Both the position numbers and the translations under genes were made by a program. This document shows positions 6,062 to 13,227 of a stretch of 64,000 nt of DNA, piece after piece (positions within the stretch are counted from its first letter, which is position 1; each line of letters starts with the position of its first letter). The stretch comes from Candidatus Spyradenecus sp. Its GTDB lineage: Bacteria; Verrucomicrobiota; Kiritimatiellia; RFP12; DVOR01. Location: the NCBI GenBank assembly GCA_045605345.1, contig JAZUPT010000009.1, positions 5,553 to 69,552 of the forward strand, in the 5' to 3' direction. The notes beneath the pieces were generated by a model, which ran no database searches, was not told the DNA's origin, and worked only from the letters and a program-made list of their open reading frames with translations.

Positions 6062-6090
6062 TTGTAAAAGTGTCTATTTTTTACTACAAT
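6062..6090 (+). promoter_or_regulatory. sigma70-type promoter of the isomerase-dhaKL-lsrF operon
   Basis: TTGTAA-17bp-TACAAT in an AT-rich region. Confidence 0.7.
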
Positions 6091-6110
6091 TTAGAGTGTT
6101 GGTTTTCGTT

Positions 6111-6130
6111 CTGACGTTTTGCAATGTCAG
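6111..6130. promoter_or_regulatory. putative repressor operator (palindrome)
   Basis: CTGACGTT-TTGC-AATGTCAG, 8-bp arms with one mismatch, just downstream of the -10 box. Confidence 0.5.
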
Positions 6131-6159
6131 TCATTTTAATTGAAAGGACTAAGAAAACA

Positions 6160-6882
6160 ATGGATACGGTAAAAATGATGCGTTTCGGCGCTCTGGCAGC
6201 TCTCGCTGCGACGTTTATGGGATTTTCTGCAGGTTGCTGCGGTACGGCAACTTGCCCAACTGCTAATGCAAAGGAGATTGTTCAAGTGACTAATGATGCT
6301 TTTTACACCGATGGTAAGTTTGACGCTGAAAAGGGCAAGCAGGCTTATATCGATTTGATGAAGAAACTCGGCGCACCCGTTTATGCTCGTTACACCGATG
6401 AACCCGGCTTCCTCTGGGCTGTTGACTTCGCACAGGGCGACTTCGCAGCATTCGGTATGGGTGGCGTTTTCTGGGAAAACAACCGCGAGAAGGAATATTT
6501 CGCACACGAAATCTTCTTGCTCCCCGGCCAGTCGATTGCTGAACACTGCCACAAGCCTACGACCGATGACAAGGGTCCCCTGCAGTGCAAGCACGAAGCT
6601 TGGCAGGTGCGTTATGGTTCTGTCTATGGCTTCAGCGAAGTGGGCGAACCCAACCTCGATCAGTATCCTGAAGTGAAGGCAATGCTCGCCAAGTGCCAGG
6701 CTCCGCACATGAACAGCGTCCACGTGGAAAAGTGGGAAGCTGATGGCAAGGTACATCGTCTGCCGAAGGATGAAACTTGGCACTTCATGATGGGCGGTCC
6801 GGAAGGCGCAGTCGTCTCCGAATATGCTACCTATCACGATGGCAACGGCCTCCGTTTCAGCTGCCCGAACGTGGCATTCTAA
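6160..6882 (+). CDS. D-lyxose/D-mannose isomerase-like cupin with lipoprotein-type signal peptide
   Basis: WAVDFAQGDF, LLPGQSIAEHCH, KHEAW, H..GGPEGAVVSEYATYHD cupin motifs; hydrophobic N-terminus ending S-A-G-C; RBS AAGGA. Confidence 0.75.
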   Translation: MDTVKMMRFGALAALAATFMGFSAGCCGTATCPTANAKEIVQVTNDAFYTDGKFDAEKGKQAYIDLMKKLGAPVYARYTDEPGFLWAVDFAQGDFAAFGMGGVFWENNREKEYFAHEIFLLPGQSIAEHCHKPTTDDKGPLQCKHEAWQVRYGSVYGFSEVGEPNLDQYPEVKAMLAKCQAPHMNSVHVEKWEADGKVHRLPKDETWHFMMGGPEGAVVSEYATYHDGNGLRFSCPNVAF

Positions 6883-6890
6883 TTTCAACC

Positions 6891-6921
6891 CCTTAGAGCC
6901 GGTGCAATTCCGGCTCTAAGG
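6891..6921 (+). other. intercistronic stem-loop (mRNA stabiliser or partial terminator)
   Basis: Perfect 12-bp stem CCTTAGAGCCGG/CCGGCTCTAAGG followed by a pyrimidine tract. Confidence 0.6.
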
Positions 6922-6960
6922 CGTCTCTTTCTCTTTCTACTAACACTAAGGAGTTAAACA

Positions 6961-7269
6961 ATGAAGTACATGCACACCGGCATGCTCGTCGGCGAAAAGA
7001 TGCCCGACATGGTTTATGTGGAACCCTTGAAGGTTTGGATCACCGACGCTTCCAAGGATAAGTACGCAATCGAATTCCTTTATTTTGAACCCGATTCTCC
7101 GATGGCTGCCGCAATCCAGGAACAGCCCCACGTCGCTTACGAAGTGGAAGATATCGACGCCGCACTCGAAGGCAAGGCCATCCTCTGGAACAAGATGGAC
7201 ATCGGCAATGCCTACATCGCATTTGTCTATGACAATAGCACGGTTGTTGAATTCTACCAGAGCAAGTAA
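6961..7269 (+). CDS. small VOC/glyoxalase-like protein
   Basis: MKYMHTG...IEFL...PHVAYEVEDIDAAL...VEF pattern; RBS AAGGAG. Confidence 0.75.
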   Translation: MKYMHTGMLVGEKMPDMVYVEPLKVWITDASKDKYAIEFLYFEPDSPMAAAIQEQPHVAYEVEDIDAALEGKAILWNKMDIGNAYIAFVYDNSTVVEFYQSK

Positions 7270-7304
7270 TTCGCTTTCACCCTCTAACTAAAGGAGCATT
7301 AATC

Positions 7305-8312
7305 ATGCCGATGAAGAAATTTATGAATGACCCCGCGAACCTCACCGCAGAAATGTTGGAAGGTCTCGCACTCGCCTACTCTGACAAGGTGAAAATCGTC
7401 AACGAACGCATCGTCGTGCGTACCCTGCCAAAGGCTGAAGACAAGGTCGCTTTGATCTGCTTCGGCGGCACTGGTCACGAACCCGCCATGCACGGATTCG
7501 TCGGTGAAGGTATGGCTGACGCAGCAGTGGCTGGCGATGTCTTCGCCGCTCCTGGCGGCCCCAAGGTTTTTGAAGCCATTGATATGTTCAAGCGTCCCGC
7601 TGGCGTGATCTTGCTCACGCTCAACCACAATGGTGACCGCATGGCTGCTCGCAAGGCCCTCCGCCTCGCTGAAAAGGCTGGCATCGAAAACATCAAGGAA
7701 ATCATCGTTCAGGAAGACATCGCTCCTGGCATCGATGCCGATCCGGAAGATCGTCGCGGTCTCGGCGGTTGCATCCCCTTGATGAAGGTCATGGGCGCCG
7801 CTTGCGAAGCAGGTAAGACGATTGACGAAGTGCTCGCTATCGGCGAAGCTTTCCACGCTCAACTCGCAACCCTCTCCGTGGCCCTCAAGGTGGCCACCCA
7901 CCCGCAGAACGGCGCTGAAATCGGCGCTCTCGCTGATGACGAAATGGAAATCGGCATGGGCCAGCATGGTGAAGGTGGCGGCGGCGTGATGAAGATTCAG
8001 ACCGCTGACGAAACCGCTAAGATCATGGTGGAACGCCTCGTGGCCGCAACGAAGCTTCAGTCTGGCGACCGCGCCCTCCTCATCATCAATGGTTCTGGTG
8101 CGACCACCGCGATGGAAATGCTCATCTGCTATCGTGCAGCCGCTAAGGTCCTCATGGGCATGGGCATCTCGCTCGTGAATGGTTTGGCCACCGAACTCCT
8201 CACCGTGCAGGAAATGGCAGGCTTCCAGATGACCCTCGCTAAGGTCACCCCCGAAACCGACGCCCTGCTCAAGGCTAAGTCTAACGCACCCTACTGGGTT
8301 TGCAACGGTTAA
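7305..8312 (+). CDS. dhaK: dihydroxyacetone kinase family, substrate-binding subunit K
   Basis: GGTGHEPAMHGFVGEGM, GDVFAAP, RRGLGG, EIGMGQHGEGG motifs. Confidence 0.9.
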   Translation: MPMKKFMNDPANLTAEMLEGLALAYSDKVKIVNERIVVRTLPKAEDKVALICFGGTGHEPAMHGFVGEGMADAAVAGDVFAAPGGPKVFEAIDMFKRPAGVILLTLNHNGDRMAARKALRLAEKAGIENIKEIIVQEDIAPGIDADPEDRRGLGGCIPLMKVMGAACEAGKTIDEVLAIGEAFHAQLATLSVALKVATHPQNGAEIGALADDEMEIGMGQHGEGGGGVMKIQTADETAKIMVERLVAATKLQSGDRALLIINGSGATTAMEMLICYRAAAKVLMGMGISLVNGLATELLTVQEMAGFQMTLAKVTPETDALLKAKSNAPYWVCNG

Positions 8313-8371
8313 TTCTCGTGGGAGGCGCACTCGCGCCTCCCAATTCACCTTTTAACAGGACCCACTCAATC

Positions 8372-8971
8372 ATGACACTCGAACAATTCAAGACCATCTG
8401 GAAGAATGCCCAGATCGCTATCAACGAAAACGAAAAGCGTTTCTCTGAACTCGATGCCGCCACCGGCGGTGATGGTGACCACGGCACTGCAATCGTTGCT
8501 GCACTGAACGCAATCGTTCACGCAGAAGGCGATGACTTCAAGACCTACATCACCGACATGGCAGAAAAGTTGGAAACCGAAGCTTCTGGTTCCACCTCCT
8601 CGCTCTATGGCGCATGGTGCGAAGGTATGGCAGACGCAGTGGCCGCTGGCAAGACCGAACTCGACGCAGAAGAACTCGCAGAGATGTTCGAAGGCGGCTT
8701 CGACGAAATCTGCTGCGTGACCAAGGCTCGCAAGGGCGACAAGACCATGATGGACGCACTTCAGCCCGCCACCGAAGCCCTTCTCGCGGCTAAGGATCAG
8801 GGTGAAGCAGCGATGTTTGCTGCTGCTGCCGCCGCCGCTAAGGCTGGCTCTGAAGCTACCGCTCAGATGCAGGCTAAGTTCGGCCGTGCTCGCAACCTCG
8901 GCGAACGCTCCATCGGCGCAATCGACGCTGGTTCGGCTTCCATGGCTGTGATCTTCGCGGCTTTCGCCTAA
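8372..8971 (+). CDS. dhaL: dihydroxyacetone kinase family, nucleotide-binding subunit L
   Basis: ELDAATGGDGDHG, GDKTMMDAL, AKFGRARNLGERSIGAIDAG. Confidence 0.9.
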   Translation: MTLEQFKTIWKNAQIAINENEKRFSELDAATGGDGDHGTAIVAALNAIVHAEGDDFKTYITDMAEKLETEASGSTSSLYGAWCEGMADAVAAGKTELDAEELAEMFEGGFDEICCVTKARKGDKTMMDALQPATEALLAAKDQGEAAMFAAAAAAAKAGSEATAQMQAKFGRARNLGERSIGAIDAGSASMAVIFAAFA

Positions 8972-9012
8972 TTTAATCCTAACCTTTCATCTTAACAACA
9001 GGAGTTATTACC

Positions 9013-9885
9013 ATGGCAGATATGGATAATTTCAAAGAAGCCACCGCTTTCGGCGTGGGCACCCCTCAGAAGACCATCGGCTTCCCCCTCAAGGGTTGCT
9101 CCAATCTTGACTGGGGCATGAAGAACCGCCTCTCCCGCATCTTCAATCCCAAGGACGGCAAGTCCCTCATGCTCGCCTGTGACCACGGCTTCATCATGGG
9201 CCCCACCGGCGGCGTCGAACGTGTCGACCTCTCCATCGTCCCCTTGATGAAGTATGCTGACTGCTTGATGTGCACCCGCGGCATTCTCCGTTCCGTCATT
9301 CCTCCGACCAACACGATTCCCGTCTGCTTGCGTTCTGACGCTGGCTCCTCGATCCTCACCAACCTCAATGACAACGTGGTGATCGATCCTGAAGACGCCA
9401 TTCGTATGAACGTCTCTGCGATGGCCGTGATGGTGGCCGTGGGCGATGAACTCATGGAAGCCAAGACGATGGCTAACCTCTACCACACGGTGGATATCGG
9501 TCAGAAGTATGGCATCCCCGTCATGGGCGTGACCGCTGTGGGTAAGCAGATGGCTCGCGATGCTAAGTACTTCCGTTTGGCCACCCGTATGTGCGCAGAA
9601 AACGGTGCTAACATCGTGAAGTCTTACTACACCGAAGGCTTCGAAACCGTGACCGCATCCTGCCCCGTGCCGATCGTGATCGCTGGCGGTAAGAAGATCC
9701 CGGAACGCGACGCGCTCGAACTCGCCTACCGCGCAATGAACGAAGGCGCCGCAGGCGTGGATATGGGTCGTAACGTCTTCCAGTCCGAAAATCCTGCTGC
9801 AATGATCCGCGCCGTGGCTGCGGTCATTCACAAGAACATGAAGCCGGAAGAAGCTTATCAGATGTACCAGGACCTCTCCAAGTAA
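9013..9885 (+). CDS. lsrF: LsrF-like thiolase/class I aldolase
   Basis: DWGMKNRLSRIFNP, DHG, GANIVKSYY catalytic Lys, CPVPIVIAGGKK, GVDMGRNVFQ. Confidence 0.9.
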   Translation: MADMDNFKEATAFGVGTPQKTIGFPLKGCSNLDWGMKNRLSRIFNPKDGKSLMLACDHGFIMGPTGGVERVDLSIVPLMKYADCLMCTRGILRSVIPPTNTIPVCLRSDAGSSILTNLNDNVVIDPEDAIRMNVSAMAVMVAVGDELMEAKTMANLYHTVDIGQKYGIPVMGVTAVGKQMARDAKYFRLATRMCAENGANIVKSYYTEGFETVTASCPVPIVIAGGKKIPERDALELAYRAMNEGAAGVDMGRNVFQSENPAAMIRAVAAVIHKNMKPEEAYQMYQDLSK

Positions 9886-9904
9886 GTCCCCAAAGACATC
9901 TCTC

Positions 9905-9942
9905 AATCACGCTTCGCATCTCGCGAGGCGTGATTATTTTTT
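9905..9942 (+). terminator. intrinsic terminator after lsrF
   Basis: AATCACGCTTCGC/GCGAGGCGTGATT stem followed by T tract. Confidence 0.8.
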
Positions 9943-10207
9943 ACACTAAGCAATTGTCACCAAGTAGCCCCACCTCGGCATCCAAATGTATGACGGGCAG
10001 AACCACGGCGAAATGCCACAATCCGCTTCACCCACAAGTTCAATAAAGGGAGACCATCGTGTTAAACCAAATTATGAACTAAACAGATTAACGCTTCTCC
10101 ATTTGCCTCTCTCATTTTCAAAATTACACGGAGTTAAATACTCCCTTTTTAAAAGACTTCATTTGCCACTTTTACAATCCCACTGCACCTTTGCTATAAT
10201 TAATGTA

Positions 10208-11617
10208 ATGTTTTCGAAACTCAAACTTTTAACTCAAATCGGCCTCTATGCGCTCATCATAAGCATTGGGTGTTGGTCCTTTTATCACACGCTTTCCAAT
10301 CCCACCCCTTTCCCGAATGAGGCCCCCCACTTGTTGACTGCGGCAGTGGAAGCTGAGGCATGTAACCTCTCCATGTTGCCCGAGGCGAGCCTCGCAACAC
10401 GTCAACCCTTTCACGAGTGTGCCGCCGCCTTTGTCCGCTTTATTAGCGAAAGTCGTCCCAATGGCTACCGCACACGCACCTACCGTCTATTTCCGATGCT
10501 CCTCTCGATTTTCTTTCTGCTCGCCTTGCCGGCATTGGGGATGAAACGTCGCGGGGGCTGTTTTGAAACAGATGATGCGCTTTTTTGGACGGCCTTATTC
10601 GTCATCTTCTCGCCTGCCTTTTCAAGCTATGGCTCGCTTTTTCTTCCCCTCTCCTTCCAAGCGCTCCTCTTTTTAGGACTCCTTATCTCTTTTCGAGCGT
10701 ATGTGCAATGGCCAGGCTATCTCTCGGCAATCGTCATTGCCCTCTGCATCTCCCTTAGCATTAGCATCAATGCGGACATGGCGTGGGTCACCCTCCTCTT
10801 CGTACCTGCGATTGCAATCGGCGTGGGATGGCGACGCATTTGCCTCTATTGGCACACGGGCCACTTCCTCACCTTCTGCGGCGTCTTGACCGCAAGCCTC
10901 GGAAGCGGTATTTACTTTGATCTCATTCAAGCCCCTACGCTGCCTAACTTCACCTTCCCTGCGGGGTGCGTCACACTGCATGCCTATTGGTTTGCCTTAG
11001 GTGGCTTTTCCTTGATTGCTTGGGTTAGCATGATTTTCTGGTGCGCCTACCATCCAGATAAACGTTGGGCGAAACTCTTCACCCTCATCTTTCCTTTACT
11101 TTTCATCTCCTCCTTTGGATTTGCTCGTGGCGGTGGGTTTGCGGTGCCCTTGGTTTGCATCTCCCCGATTCTTTTGGCGATGGCGCTCTCTGCGATTCCC
11201 AATCTACGCATCCGCATCATCATGGGCGGCATCACCCTTTTGGTTTTAGCGCTCTACGTTCCAGAGCTCAACCACCATCCCCTCACACGCGAGGCCCAAC
11301 GGCACTTTGCGCGCACCTTAATCCATCACACCCAAGCGCAAAAAGGCACCCCCACCACCACGGCTATCCGCTTCAACGATCCCGAGTGGTGCGCCTTCTC
11401 AGTTTGGCCCATCCGCCATACACGGTTAGTCTCTGGCGAAGCGACACCTCACGCCACCCTTTCACGCGTTGATCGTCTGCTCACCGACCAACCCCTCCCG
11501 CAAGACGCACGCGCCGAACTCCTCTTCTCCCGCCCCGTCACTCGGATAGAAACCCTTTCCCTTTACACCACGCACCCCGTCACAACACCCGCTCCCACAC
11601 CGCAAAAGACATTATGA
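10208..11617 (+). CDS. multi-pass membrane protein, possibly a divergent GT-C (ArnT/PMT-like) glycosyltransferase
   Basis: About 10 hydrophobic segments; PFPNEA after TM1, RLFPMLL and ALFVIFSPAF resemble GT-C motifs; TGcTATAAT promoter at 10192-10200. Confidence 0.45.
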   Translation: MFSKLKLLTQIGLYALIISIGCWSFYHTLSNPTPFPNEAPHLLTAAVEAEACNLSMLPEASLATRQPFHECAAAFVRFISESRPNGYRTRTYRLFPMLLSIFFLLALPALGMKRRGGCFETDDALFWTALFVIFSPAFSSYGSLFLPLSFQALLFLGLLISFRAYVQWPGYLSAIVIALCISLSISINADMAWVTLLFVPAIAIGVGWRRICLYWHTGHFLTFCGVLTASLGSGIYFDLIQAPTLPNFTFPAGCVTLHAYWFALGGFSLIAWVSMIFWCAYHPDKRWAKLFTLIFPLLFISSFGFARGGGFAVPLVCISPILLAMALSAIPNLRIRIIMGGITLLVLALYVPELNHHPLTREAQRHFARTLIHHTQAQKGTPTTTAIRFNDPEWCAFSVWPIRHTRLVSGEATPHATLSRVDRLLTDQPLPQDARAELLFSRPVTRIETLSLYTTHPVTTPAPTPQKTL

Positions 11618-13227
11618 CCAAGTATTTCTGCCATCTTCCCTTTCTGCTTCTCGCGCTCCTCGCGGTGCCGTGGCTAACGCCCGCCGTGACGAGTATGCAT
11701 AGCACGATGACCGACGCATCGCAGCACATGGAGTACATTTGGTTGATTCCGTGCTTGAGTGCGCTCCTGCTTTGGCAACGTAGAAAGCAGATTCTTGACG
11801 CGATTCGCGCCCCGAAGCCGGCCCCATTCTTAGCCTTACCGCTCGTTTTAGCCTCTGGCTTCTTCCTCTTCTTCGGTCTCCGTGGCGGTCAAGATCGCTT
11901 TCTACAGACTGCGGCAGTGCTTCTCCTCTTAGCCCTACCGCTCGCAACTTATGGTAAGCGTCTCTTCCGCGTGGTGTGGTTTCCAATTCTGCTCTTAGCC
12001 TTTGTGATGCCCGTTGGCTTCTTAGACAACTTTACCGTGCCCTTACGTCGCGCCTCGGTCTCCGTGACCGCTTTCCTCCTCAACGGACTCGGCATCAACG
12101 TGCGCCAACTCGGCACCGCCATCATCTCCACCGGAACGCCCCCCTTCCAATTAGACGTGGCAGACCCCTGCAGCGGCATTCGTTCCCTTGTGGCACTCTT
12201 TGTTGGCACGGCTGCCTACGGCGCCTTTATGCTCACGAGCGTCAAACGGCGTTGGGTACTCTTCCTCTCCAGCGTGCCGATTGCCTTTTTGGGCAACATC
12301 CTTCGCCTCCTCTTGACCGCATTCACCTGCCACTTCATTAGCCAACAGGCTGGGATGACCCTCCACGACCATGCGCTTTTCATCGTGGCACCCTTCTATG
12401 CCTTTGTCGTCTTCCAATTCACAGACTTCCTCAAGAAGAAGCAAACCGTTGCGCCCGCGCCCGAAGTCCCCACTGGAAGCGCCACGCCCCATGCACCCTC
12501 ACGCCTCACGTGGGGCACCCTTGGACTCATTGCGCTCTTCCTCATTGCCTTCCGTGGCTATGCCAACAAAATGCCGCCCTTAGTCTTTGAATCCGACGAC
12601 TTCCTCTGCTCAAACTTCGTCGAACTGCCGAATGCAACAATGGCCTTCCCTTGGTTCTGCCAAGATCGCACCTGCCTCGCCTCCCAAAACCTCACCCTTG
12701 GAGCCCCCTTCCCGGAACGTTGCCCACAATGCGGTGGTGAAGTTGGCAAGGTCTCTCGCGCCGAACAGGATATTCTGCCCGCCGATACGCAGAGCCGAAA
12801 GGTCACCTACACCTTCACCAATGGCGATATCTTCACCGTCTCACTCGTTATTGCGGGCAAGAATCGTATGTCCATCCACCGCCCTGAGCTTTGCCTTCCT
12901 TCTCAAGGTTACGTCCTTAGCGAACGCAAGATCGTCCAACTCTCGGATGCCTTACCGATGGCCACCTTCTCATTACGTCGCGAAGGCCACACCCATACGA
13001 GTGGATTTGGGTATGTCTTCTTGAATTCCCGCCTTGCGACCACCTCCAACCTGCACCGCGTCTTGGGGGACAGTTGGCAACGTTCGGTGCACAATCGCAT
13101 TCAACGTTGGGCGATGATTACAGTTCGTTCTCCCCATTACGATTTCCAAACGCCCGAAGGCGAAGCCGCCCTTCGCGCATTTATGCTCCGCTTTTATCCC
13201 ACCCTTTTCACCGCAACGGCCCAATAA
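11614..13227 (+). CDS. exosortase fused to an EpsI-like C-terminal domain
   Basis: VADPCSGIRSL (Cys), GNILRL (Arg), LHD (His) triad; C-terminal SIHRPELCLPSQG EpsI-like motif. Confidence 0.88.
   Translation: MTKYFCHLPFLLLALLAVPWLTPAVTSMHSTMTDASQHMEYIWLIPCLSALLLWQRRKQILDAIRAPKPAPFLALPLVLASGFFLFFGLRGGQDRFLQTAAVLLLLALPLATYGKRLFRVVWFPILLLAFVMPVGFLDNFTVPLRRASVSVTAFLLNGLGINVRQLGTAIISTGTPPFQLDVADPCSGIRSLVALFVGTAAYGAFMLTSVKRRWVLFLSSVPIAFLGNILRLLLTAFTCHFISQQAGMTLHDHALFIVAPFYAFVVFQFTDFLKKKQTVAPAPEVPTGSATPHAPSRLTWGTLGLIALFLIAFRGYANKMPPLVFESDDFLCSNFVELPNATMAFPWFCQDRTCLASQNLTLGAPFPERCPQCGGEVGKVSRAEQDILPADTQSRKVTYTFTNGDIFTVSLVIAGKNRMSIHRPELCLPSQGYVLSERKIVQLSDALPMATFSLRREGHTHTSGFGYVFLNSRLATTSNLHRVLGDSWQRSVHNRIQRWAMITVRSPHYDFQTPEGEAALRAFMLRFYPTLFTATAQ

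Follow-up and report, generated by a model that had tools for sequence, protein, structure and literature searches.

What do five genes, one of them related to lsrF of the autoinducer-2 (AI-2) pathway, do together in a bacterium of the Kiritimatiellia? They lie in a 64,000-nucleotide stretch of a Candidatus Spyradenecus genome (contig JAZUPT010000009.1, positions 5,553 to 69,552), called the window here. Co-oriented on the + strand of window positions 6062-9942, their open reading frames (ORFs) encode, in this order, a cupin (g1), a small vicinal oxygen chelate (VOC) protein (g2), the two subunits of a DhaK/DhaL-type kinase and an LsrF-family enzyme. The first-pass annotation of this DNA, which had placed the five genes correctly, offered two answers. 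Either the kinase pair and the two isomerase-type proteins replace LsrK and LsrG in the catabolism of AI-2 and its precursor 4,5-dihydroxy-2,3-pentanedione (DPD), or they feed a different ketose into LsrF. The evidence fits the second answer and speaks against the first. We give a probability of about 0.55 to the reading that the five genes form a self-contained, conserved catabolic module for an external keto-sugar precursor and do not serve AI-2 quorum quenching. The module is based on gene content, folds, catalytic-type residues, co-inheritance and expression-type codon bias. The order of the steps, the compartment of g1, the phosphoryl donor, the mode of cleavage and the substrate are the parts that we infer.

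In the Lsr pathway, the kinase LsrK, the isomerase LsrG and the thiolase LsrF act in turn, and the intermediate 3-hydroxy-2,4-pentanedione phosphate (P-HPD) is converted to dihydroxyacetone phosphate (DHAP) and acetyl-CoA. To our knowledge, no role of LsrF is known other than the final step by which enteric bacteria destroy the AI-2 signal. In the work of Marques et al. 2014, it is reportedly the CoA-dependent thiolase of the Lsr AI-2 processing pathway of E. coli and Salmonella.

Conservation of the five-gene cassette

Scanning species-representative genomes with a g2 profile gave 53 loci. Wherever g2 is at least 52% identical to the window copy, all five genes are present in the same order (11 of 11 loci). 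Fifteen further loci hold a g2 relative detected by tblastn (25-41% identity), and there the other four genes are not nearby. A sample of 401 genomes of the phylum contained an LsrF-like gene in 49, with 17 of 17 in the window's family, and g1 in 36; the 34 strong g1 holders all fall within the 49 LsrF holders. Outside the genus, the full ordered cassette was found in 8 of 32 loci around LsrF-like genes (among these loci, L056 duplicates L008, on the same contig), with identities down to 33% for g1 and 32% for g2.

One genus carries the cassette in split form, as SSF permease-g1-g2-DhaK (4 loci) and DhaL-LsrF (5 loci), with every part kept. The full set is also present in a cultured planctomycete, Novipirellula herctigrandis (g1 44%, g2 26%, DhaK 57%, DhaL 53% and LsrF 59% identical), where three sulfatase genes lie upstream. 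That the genes belong together, as suspected at first pass, is borne out by the close loci, by distant Verrucomicrobiota and by this one planctomycete. Clustering of the flanking ORFs of 30 loci revealed no further neighbour conserved across lineages.

The LsrF-family enzyme and the kinase pair

The window LsrF scores 443.7 bits on NF006081, for which the cut-off is 297, and its residues 1-286 align with residues 3-289 of E. coli LsrF (3gkf), N-terminal extension included (E 6e-106). It belongs to the DeoC/LacD class I aldolase family. The putative Schiff-base lysine is conserved, with ANIVKSYY in the window aligned to AQIIKTYY in E. coli (segment I-[IV]-K-[TS]-Y-Y); we take this residue to be the one numbered Lys203 in E. 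coli LsrF. A tree built without E. coli LsrF separates the cassette LsrFs from the others by a 100/100 branch, on whose cassette side one type-D row also falls. The one enterobacterial genome reached, that of Kluyvera, has only a relative at 29% identity.

LsrF-family genes of the phylum occur in at least three other contexts that are not lsr operons. Their products also pass NF006081, at 440.7 and 505.3 bits, the cassette type scoring about 441-444. Since the genes of these contexts pass the model equally well or better, the name 'LsrF' alone tells little about AI-2.

In one of the other contexts, seen in Verrucomicrobiota (L073, L075, L077, L078 and L083, also L074 and L076), LsrF is accompanied by a class II aldolase-like protein, a short-chain dehydrogenase/reductase (SDR) and a ribulose-phosphate 3-epimerase. 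The SDR has its relatives in the C-terminal half of 'bifunctional aldolase/SDR' enzymes, and the LsrF of L075 reaches 505 bits. Next to the cassette, this is a second LsrF context that awaits characterisation. A different arrangement at L070, L081 and L082 runs AraC regulator, alpha/beta hydrolase, IolE-like TIM barrel, aldolase::SDR fusion, LsrF, DhaL, DhaK, ABM protein and a TIM barrel. The DhaK motifs of this cluster are canonical, and its ABM protein scores 26 bits on the LsrG model (cut-off 135). Here DhaKL and LsrF are joined in a third arrangement.

The kinase subunits of the cassette match Dak1 (DhaK, E 4.9e-88) and Dak2 (DhaL, E 2.2e-36), and the pair keeps the GHEP histidine, the catalytic Asp and the substrate-binding His. 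Both subunits fall below the equivalog cut-offs, DhaK with 261.4 bits against 406.25 for dhaK1 and DhaL with 120.2 against 138.3 for dha_L. The altered motifs NHNGD and GQHGEGG, noticed in DhaK at first pass, proved to be specific to a clade. The private forms LNH.GD and GMGQHGE[GA]G[GT]G are found in 17 of 17 cassette-linked DhaKs and in none of three DhaKs from another cluster type, which keep the usual NNYAGD and GMG[IL]HGEAG. The changes, Tyr to His and Ile to Gln, flank catalytic residues in all 17. The lack of dhaM, noted earlier for the operon, extends to the source genome (2.19 Mb, 93.9% complete), in which no EIIA-man domain (PF03610) was found.

The cupin and the mini-VOC protein

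The g1 protein has no Pfam or NCBIfam family (Pfam at E up to 0.01; Lyx_isomer unmatched). Its structure model has a mean predicted local distance difference test score (pLDDT) of 87.6; residues 1-36 are disordered (below 50) and the remainder is confident. The top Foldseek match is the D-lyxose isomerase 7nzo (E 1.2e-12, TM-score by target 0.85), and 2y0o was also returned. A profile of 28 g1 homologues run against the PDB retrieved the same two isomerase families (E about 5e-13), so the earlier call of a cupin isomerase fold holds. The segments EH.H, K.E and WH..G..EGA align between the g1 profile and the D-lyxose isomerases, and they include the putative metal-binding and catalytic residues. 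A look-up in the ESM Atlas returned only cluster names of the 'hypothetical' or lyxose-isomerase-like kind.

The homologues of g1 begin at the residue encoded at 6160, and 22 of the 28 aligned have a lipoprotein-like N-terminus, a hydrophobic stretch ending in Cys as read by eye; one more is ambiguous. In the split cassette, an SSF permease lies directly upstream of g1, and paralogues of g1 lie between sulfatases and a GH97 glycoside hydrolase, next to GH2 and next to GH123.

The only Pfam family that g2 approaches is Glyoxalase_4, below cut-off (E 0.004; 17.8 bits against 27). Its model has a pLDDT of 95.6, and Foldseek groups it with glyoxalase I and methylmalonyl-CoA epimerase (3hdp, E 2.6e-4), in agreement with the VOC fold first assigned to it. 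All 21 sequences compared share H5, E43, H57 and E97, which the model places on or beside strands 1, 4, 5 and 8. We take this H/E/H/E pattern, in a paired beta-alpha-beta-beta-beta fold, to be the metal-site pattern of the VOC superfamily. The family is sizeable and has no name; a threshold of E 1e-3 gathers 783 cluster representatives, and one of 1e-10 still gathers 332. We know of no characterised member of this roughly 105-residue 'mini-VOC' group. Relatives in marine Bacteroidota and Planctomycetes lie near RhaT-like permeases, GH2, GH127, GH16, sulfatases and AraC regulators.

Polysaccharide-utilisation contexts surround distant g2 relatives (33-40% identity; L017 8001-8303 and neighbours, L018, L021 and L023). 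In Novipirellula, the g2-like gene stands in the order RhaT-like permease, MR_MLE, aldehyde dehydrogenase, g2-like gene, KDPG-type aldolase, PfkB and sulfatase, which resembles that of anhydrogalactose (Dau-type) operons. Flavobacterial relatives are located beside GH2, GH127, a PF12831 FAD oxidoreductase and SSF.

Codon bias and the carrier

Principal component analysis of codon usage over 1524 called ORFs gave a first axis (PC1) that accounts for 30% of the variance. Its extreme is occupied by PPDK, a sugar porter, PNPase, PEPCK, GAPDH, glycogen phosphorylase, S1, EF-Tu, EF-G and L10. On this axis LsrF stands at percentile 1.3, DhaK at 2.4, DhaL at 5.2, g2 at 13 and g1 at 34. Among ORFs of at least 100 residues, LsrF ranks 19th and DhaK 36th on the expression-linked axis, and the bias of both is level with that of EF-Tu and GAPDH. 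The conspicuous codon bias that had been read as high expression of all five genes is thus strong for LsrF, DhaK and DhaL and less marked for g2 and g1. Judged by codon usage, the cassette is probably highly expressed. In one study, four gut RNA libraries yielded contigs over the operon and the flanking genes; these show presence and neither rank the genes nor prove transcription. One that spans 6134-8295, from g1 across the hairpin at 6891-6921 and g2 into DhaK, likewise shows presence only.

The partners that LsrF has in the enteric pathway were sought in the genome. No LuxS was found in it, and no match to an FGGY kinase (FGGY_N, the LsrK family). The LsrG model NF007791 had no match in the genome, and its positive control in E. 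coli also gave none; tblastn with an ABM protein from L070 found nothing either. A binding protein of the LsrB type (Peripla_BP_4) was missing from all 7 genus genomes searched, and none adjoins the cassette. These searches support the first-pass observation of an LsrF without its canonical Lsr partners. The expected anti-correlation with FGGY kinases fared worse. Only 2 of 15 genus genomes have an FGGY match, whereas nearly all other families of the order have one. Beyond the reduced family f1 no anti-correlation is left, as genomes of family f4 that have the cassette carry 3-10 FGGY matches.

Class II aldolase, RhaA, phosphoketolase and GH43 were likewise not found in the genome, and its only PfkB match is weak and partial. 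All 15 genus genomes have class II fructose-bisphosphate aldolase (FBA), and all 15 have sulfatases. The next 87 strongly codon-biased genes of at least 230 residues include GH2, GH20 beside an SSF permease, GH84, GH109, a BNR sialidase-like protein, NagA, NagB and an APH-family kinase, as well as AdhE, pyruvate formate-lyase (PFL), Pta and an [FeFe] hydrogenase. By this gene set, the carrier looks like a fermenter of host glycans of the mucin type, with a narrow sugar repertoire.

A candidate sugar-splitting module

We propose that the cassette splits a sugar in five steps. The lipoprotein cupin g1 would act outside the cytoplasm as a metal-dependent ketol isomerase on an external aldose or related sugar, possibly one released from host or sulfated glycans, and an unlinked permease would import the product. 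The g2 metalloenzyme may then carry out a second proton-transfer step, which could be an epimerisation, a carbonyl shift or a dehydration. DhaK/DhaL would next phosphorylate the -CO-CH2OH end of the open-chain keto compound, with ATP as the probable phosphoryl donor because no DhaM was found. The DhaK family requires an open-chain -CO-CH2OH end, and by acting there DhaKL would create the DHAP-like end that an LsrF-type Schiff-base enzyme needs. Finally, the LsrF-family enzyme would form a Schiff base at the ketone and cleave the C-C bond. One product would be DHAP; the other would be a short acyl-CoA if the enzyme works as a thiolase like E. coli LsrF, and an aldehyde if it works as an aldolase. 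Since the codon bias reaches the level of main pathways, the cassette points to a bulk pathway and not to the scavenging of a signal.

Several points weigh against this proposal. The glycan genes beside paralogues are no proof of the substrate of the window copy, whose own flanks (SulP, a HemB-like ORF, a membrane protein and an exosortase) are unrelated. Most loci have no linked transporter or regulator. The codon bias of g1 is only average, and an exported sugar isomerase would be unusual; g1 appears to be exported as a lipoprotein-type protein, going by N-termini read by eye, and the signal is missing in 5 of the 28 homologues. With an HPr-like gene in the genome, a donor of the phosphotransferase-system type is conceivable. 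LsrF also aligns end to end with the thiolase that acts on P-HPD in E. coli (357 bits; about 60% identity, judged by eye), which favours the substrate of AI-2 processing itself.

Some individual sugars and roles were also considered. GalK occurs in every one of the 15 genus genomes, which makes galactose an unlikely substrate without being decisive. Fucose is weakened, though not decisively, by GH29, which is absent from the cassette-bearing genome and found in 10 of 15 of the genus. Hemicellulose pentoses are unsupported by the glycosidase set, which has no GH43; this too is not decisive. LsrF as a stand-in for the fructose-bisphosphate aldolase was rejected on the class II FBA found throughout the genus.

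AI-2 processing would make use of the same five genes. A bacterium that makes no AI-2 would scavenge or quench the signal of others: g1 or g2 would isomerise DPD to 3-hydroxy-2,4-pentanedione (HPD), DhaKL would phosphorylate the hydroxyacetone end to P-HPD, and LsrF would release DHAP and acetyl-CoA. DPD chemistry could fit every enzyme of the set, and the whole-length match to E. coli LsrF and the pass on NF006081 agree with it. With LsrK, the LsrG model, the LsrB-type protein and LuxS all not found, a replacement set would indeed be needed, and the ABM protein with its weak LsrG-model match stands beside DhaK-DhaL-LsrF in the L070-type cluster. We nevertheless judge this reading, the one preferred at first pass, possible yet unlikely. 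A micromolar signal is no high-flux substrate, and DhaK and LsrF have a codon bias equal to that of EF-Tu and GAPDH. The cassette is also carried by metagenome-assembled genomes whose record titles give no hint of a gut and by a cultured planctomycete. The paralogues of g1 and relatives of g2 lie in glycan-degradation loci, g1 has a lipoprotein-type signal in most homologues, LsrF-like genes of non-lsr contexts outscore the cassette type on NF006081 (505 against about 441-444 bits), and the cassette LsrFs form their own branch.

Two further readings keep the idea of sugar cleavage and change the roles. LsrF might be a plain ketose-1-phosphate aldolase, as in fructolysis, if an unlinked kinase phosphorylated the sugar and DhaKL served later, phosphorylating the triose that LsrF releases, glyceraldehyde or dihydroxyacetone. 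DhaK-family kinases are known to act on both trioses, LsrF lies within the class I aldolase family, DhaL and LsrF stay adjacent even in the split cassette, and PDB titles show that mannose is turned into fructose within the D-lyxose isomerase family, too. What makes this improbable is the kinase: with no FGGY kinase and a sole, weak PfkB match, no ketose kinase candidate is in view, and the private DhaK changes beside the catalytic Asp and the substrate His point to a substrate other than a triose. The high similarity of LsrF to a proven thiolase adds to the doubt. Salvage of 5-deoxyribose or another deoxy-pentose, by analogy with the DHAP shunt, seems to us very improbable. Here an isomerase would yield 5-deoxyribulose, DhaKL its 1-phosphate, and LsrF would release DHAP and acetaldehyde. 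The 1-phosphate would differ from P-HPD at C4 only, class II aldolases and FGGY kinases were not found in the genome, and AdhE and the radical-SAM-dependent enzymes (PFL, HydF-type hydrogenase maturation) are codon-biased. Yet such a by-product is intracellular, whereas g1 has an export signal; salvage would need no top-level expression, and g2 would be left without a role.

The reading of the cassette as a module for an external keto-sugar precursor can be carried one step further, to a specific and unlikely version. Here a pentose-level sugar would be split in bulk into C3 and C2 units by a new route that needs neither the pentose-phosphate pathway nor phosphoketolase. In this version g1 would produce a pentulose, and g2 would combine a carbonyl shift with a dehydration, in the manner of LuxS or MtnB, to give the 5-deoxy-2,4-diketone HPD, which would be the unphosphorylated Lsr intermediate. 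DhaKL would phosphorylate HPD, and thiolysis by LsrF would yield DHAP and acetyl-CoA. We infer this route purely from chemistry, the LsrF likeness, the contexts of LsrF genes and the missing FGGY kinase, aldolase and RhaA. If it is true, sugar catabolism of this chemical kind would be the older, with the enteric AI-2 'processing' enzymes as its side branch, and the LsrF clusters of the L073-L083 type would be a phosphorylated version of the same idea.

Relation to known systems

Among known systems the enteric Lsr pathway comes nearest, with only the last enzyme in common. The logic is alike, in that a compound is isomerised, phosphorylated and cleaved to DHAP and a C2 unit by a final enzyme of the same family. 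The kinase is FGGY-type LsrK in the one and a DhaK/DhaL pair in the other, and the isomerase is an ABM protein in Lsr, whereas the cassette has a cupin and a VOC protein, one of them apparently exported. In Lsr phosphorylation precedes isomerisation; in the proposed order for the cassette isomerisation would come first. An ABC transporter, LsrR and LuxS, which go with Lsr, were not found for the cassette or its genome, and the codon bias of the cassette points to a bulk pathway.

The single proteins have relatives of their own. With the D-lyxose/D-mannose isomerases (YdaE of B. subtilis, 2y0o, and the Thermofilum enzyme, 7nzo), g1 shares the cupin fold and the EH.H, K.E and H...E motifs, at about 25% identity and without a Pfam Lyx_isomer match. 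It adds a lipoprotein-type signal, about 40 extra residues and fixed partners in DhaKL and LsrF. The nearest relatives of the kinase pair are the DhaK/DhaL kinases of E. coli and L. lactis and the erythrulose kinases of the DhaK family. The pair has in common with them the Dak1 and Dak2 domains, the GHEP His, the catalytic Asp and the substrate-binding His, and it differs in its sub-equivalog scores, in the Tyr to His and Ile to Gln changes and in having no DhaM. Glyoxalase I and methylmalonyl-CoA epimerase have the VOC fold and the four His/Glu residues in common with g2, which has only 102 residues and belongs to a family of its own. The DHAP shunt for 5-deoxyribose and mammalian fructolysis both cleave a ketose 1-phosphate to DHAP and a small carbonyl compound, and fructolysis uses a triokinase of the DhaK family. 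They differ from the cassette in their other kinase and aldolase families, and they involve no VOC protein, no exported cupin and no acyl-CoA.

The literature covered, which leaves out most subscription journals and supplements, showed no link of LsrF to DhaK-type kinases, lyxose-isomerase-like cupins or Kiritimatiellia. Most likely, the cassette is a real, widespread and undescribed catabolic module. The name LsrF has been spread widely by database annotation, and most LsrF-family genes of the phylum that were studied here stand in non-lsr contexts. One of these is the fixed cassette, which crosses phyla and, in a gut bacterium equipped with the genes of a host-glycan degrader, shows codon usage typical of a main energy pathway. 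Naming its substrate would add a new route of sugar catabolism, assign functions to exported lyxose-isomerase-like cupins and mini-VOC proteins, and correct inferences of AI-2 'quorum quenching' drawn from lsrF matches in metagenomes. The question can be put to the test in Novipirellula herctigrandis CA13, a carrier that is available in culture.

Gene layout and neighbouring features

The features of the locus are collected in Table 1. The first-pass annotation described an operon with one promoter, one terminator, strong ribosome-binding sites and long antisense ORFs. A promoter-like site does lie upstream of g1, and the scan found 5 such sites against 3.4 +/- 1.8 in shuffled sequence, which is no enrichment. 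The terminator after LsrF is convincing; the two hairpins inside the operon, which had gone unmentioned, leave it not the only such structure, although the one between DhaK and DhaL is absent from the list of the terminator scan. Ribosome-binding sites of the AGGAG type precede g2, DhaK and LsrF. For DhaL, the ORF list gives a TTG start at 8300, and the ATG at 8372 has AGGA 11 nt upstream. The antisense ORFs are indeed long, at 250, 349 and 304 residues.

Table 1. Features of the cassette in the window, and a protein that adjoins the cassette at other loci
Feature	Position	Strand	Description	Remark
Promoter candidate	6062-6090	+	sigma-70-like, TTGTAA-17-TACAAT	9/12 matches; site type not above chance
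g1	6160-6882	+	cupin with lipoprotein-type signal, D-lyxose/D-mannose isomerase superfamily	alternative upstream ATG 6124
Stem-loop 3' of g1	6891-6921	+	12 pairs, weak T tail	terminator scan
g2	6961-7269	+	102-aa VOC-fold putative metalloenzyme, glyoxalase I / methylmalonyl-CoA epimerase-like	
DhaK	7305-8312	+	substrate-binding kinase subunit	clade-specific motifs LNHNGD, GMGQHGEGG
Stem-loop between DhaK and DhaL	8321-8342	+	GC-rich, GGGAGGCGC-ACTC-GCGCCTCCC	read by eye
DhaL	8372-8971	+	nucleotide-binding kinase subunit, Dak2	
LsrF-family enzyme	9013-9885	+	class I (Schiff-base) C-C cleaving	
Intrinsic terminator after LsrF	9905-9935	+	13-bp stem, then T run	
HZS_alpha/FGE-sulfatase protein	L008 3474-7268; L069 10228-13530; L094 2709-6848			Pfam
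Relative of HZS_alpha/FGE-sulfatase protein	L121 9938-13498			tblastn, FGE-sulfatase part only

Directly downstream of the cassette, at window positions 9986-13227, lie a 543-residue multi-pass membrane protein that matches no Pfam family, and an exosortase (EpsH) that carries a fused C-terminal domain; neither is conserved beside the cassette in other loci. A different neighbour, a protein of 1100-1380 residues with an HZS_alpha middle and a C-terminal FGE-sulfatase domain, adjoins the cassette in four distant lineages.

Other genes stand out on the codon axis. The 16th is a GGGtGRT-family protein (PF14057, E 1e-196; G000:C19:98318-99349, L114), a family that is not known to have an assigned function. 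A gene for a protein like the P22 coat protein (G000:C29:28816-29928, L118) is among the 20 most biased, and several neighbouring biased ORFs (neighbours in L123) have no Pfam family; this region could be a highly expressed phage-derived or compartment-like structure. The second most biased gene encodes a 615-residue sugar porter of the MFS family (GlcP/XylE-like, below equivalog cut-offs; G000:C23:11030-14292, L100 and L103). It is adjoined by an equally biased gene for a 463-residue protein without a family, and the two are a candidate for the main sugar uptake system.

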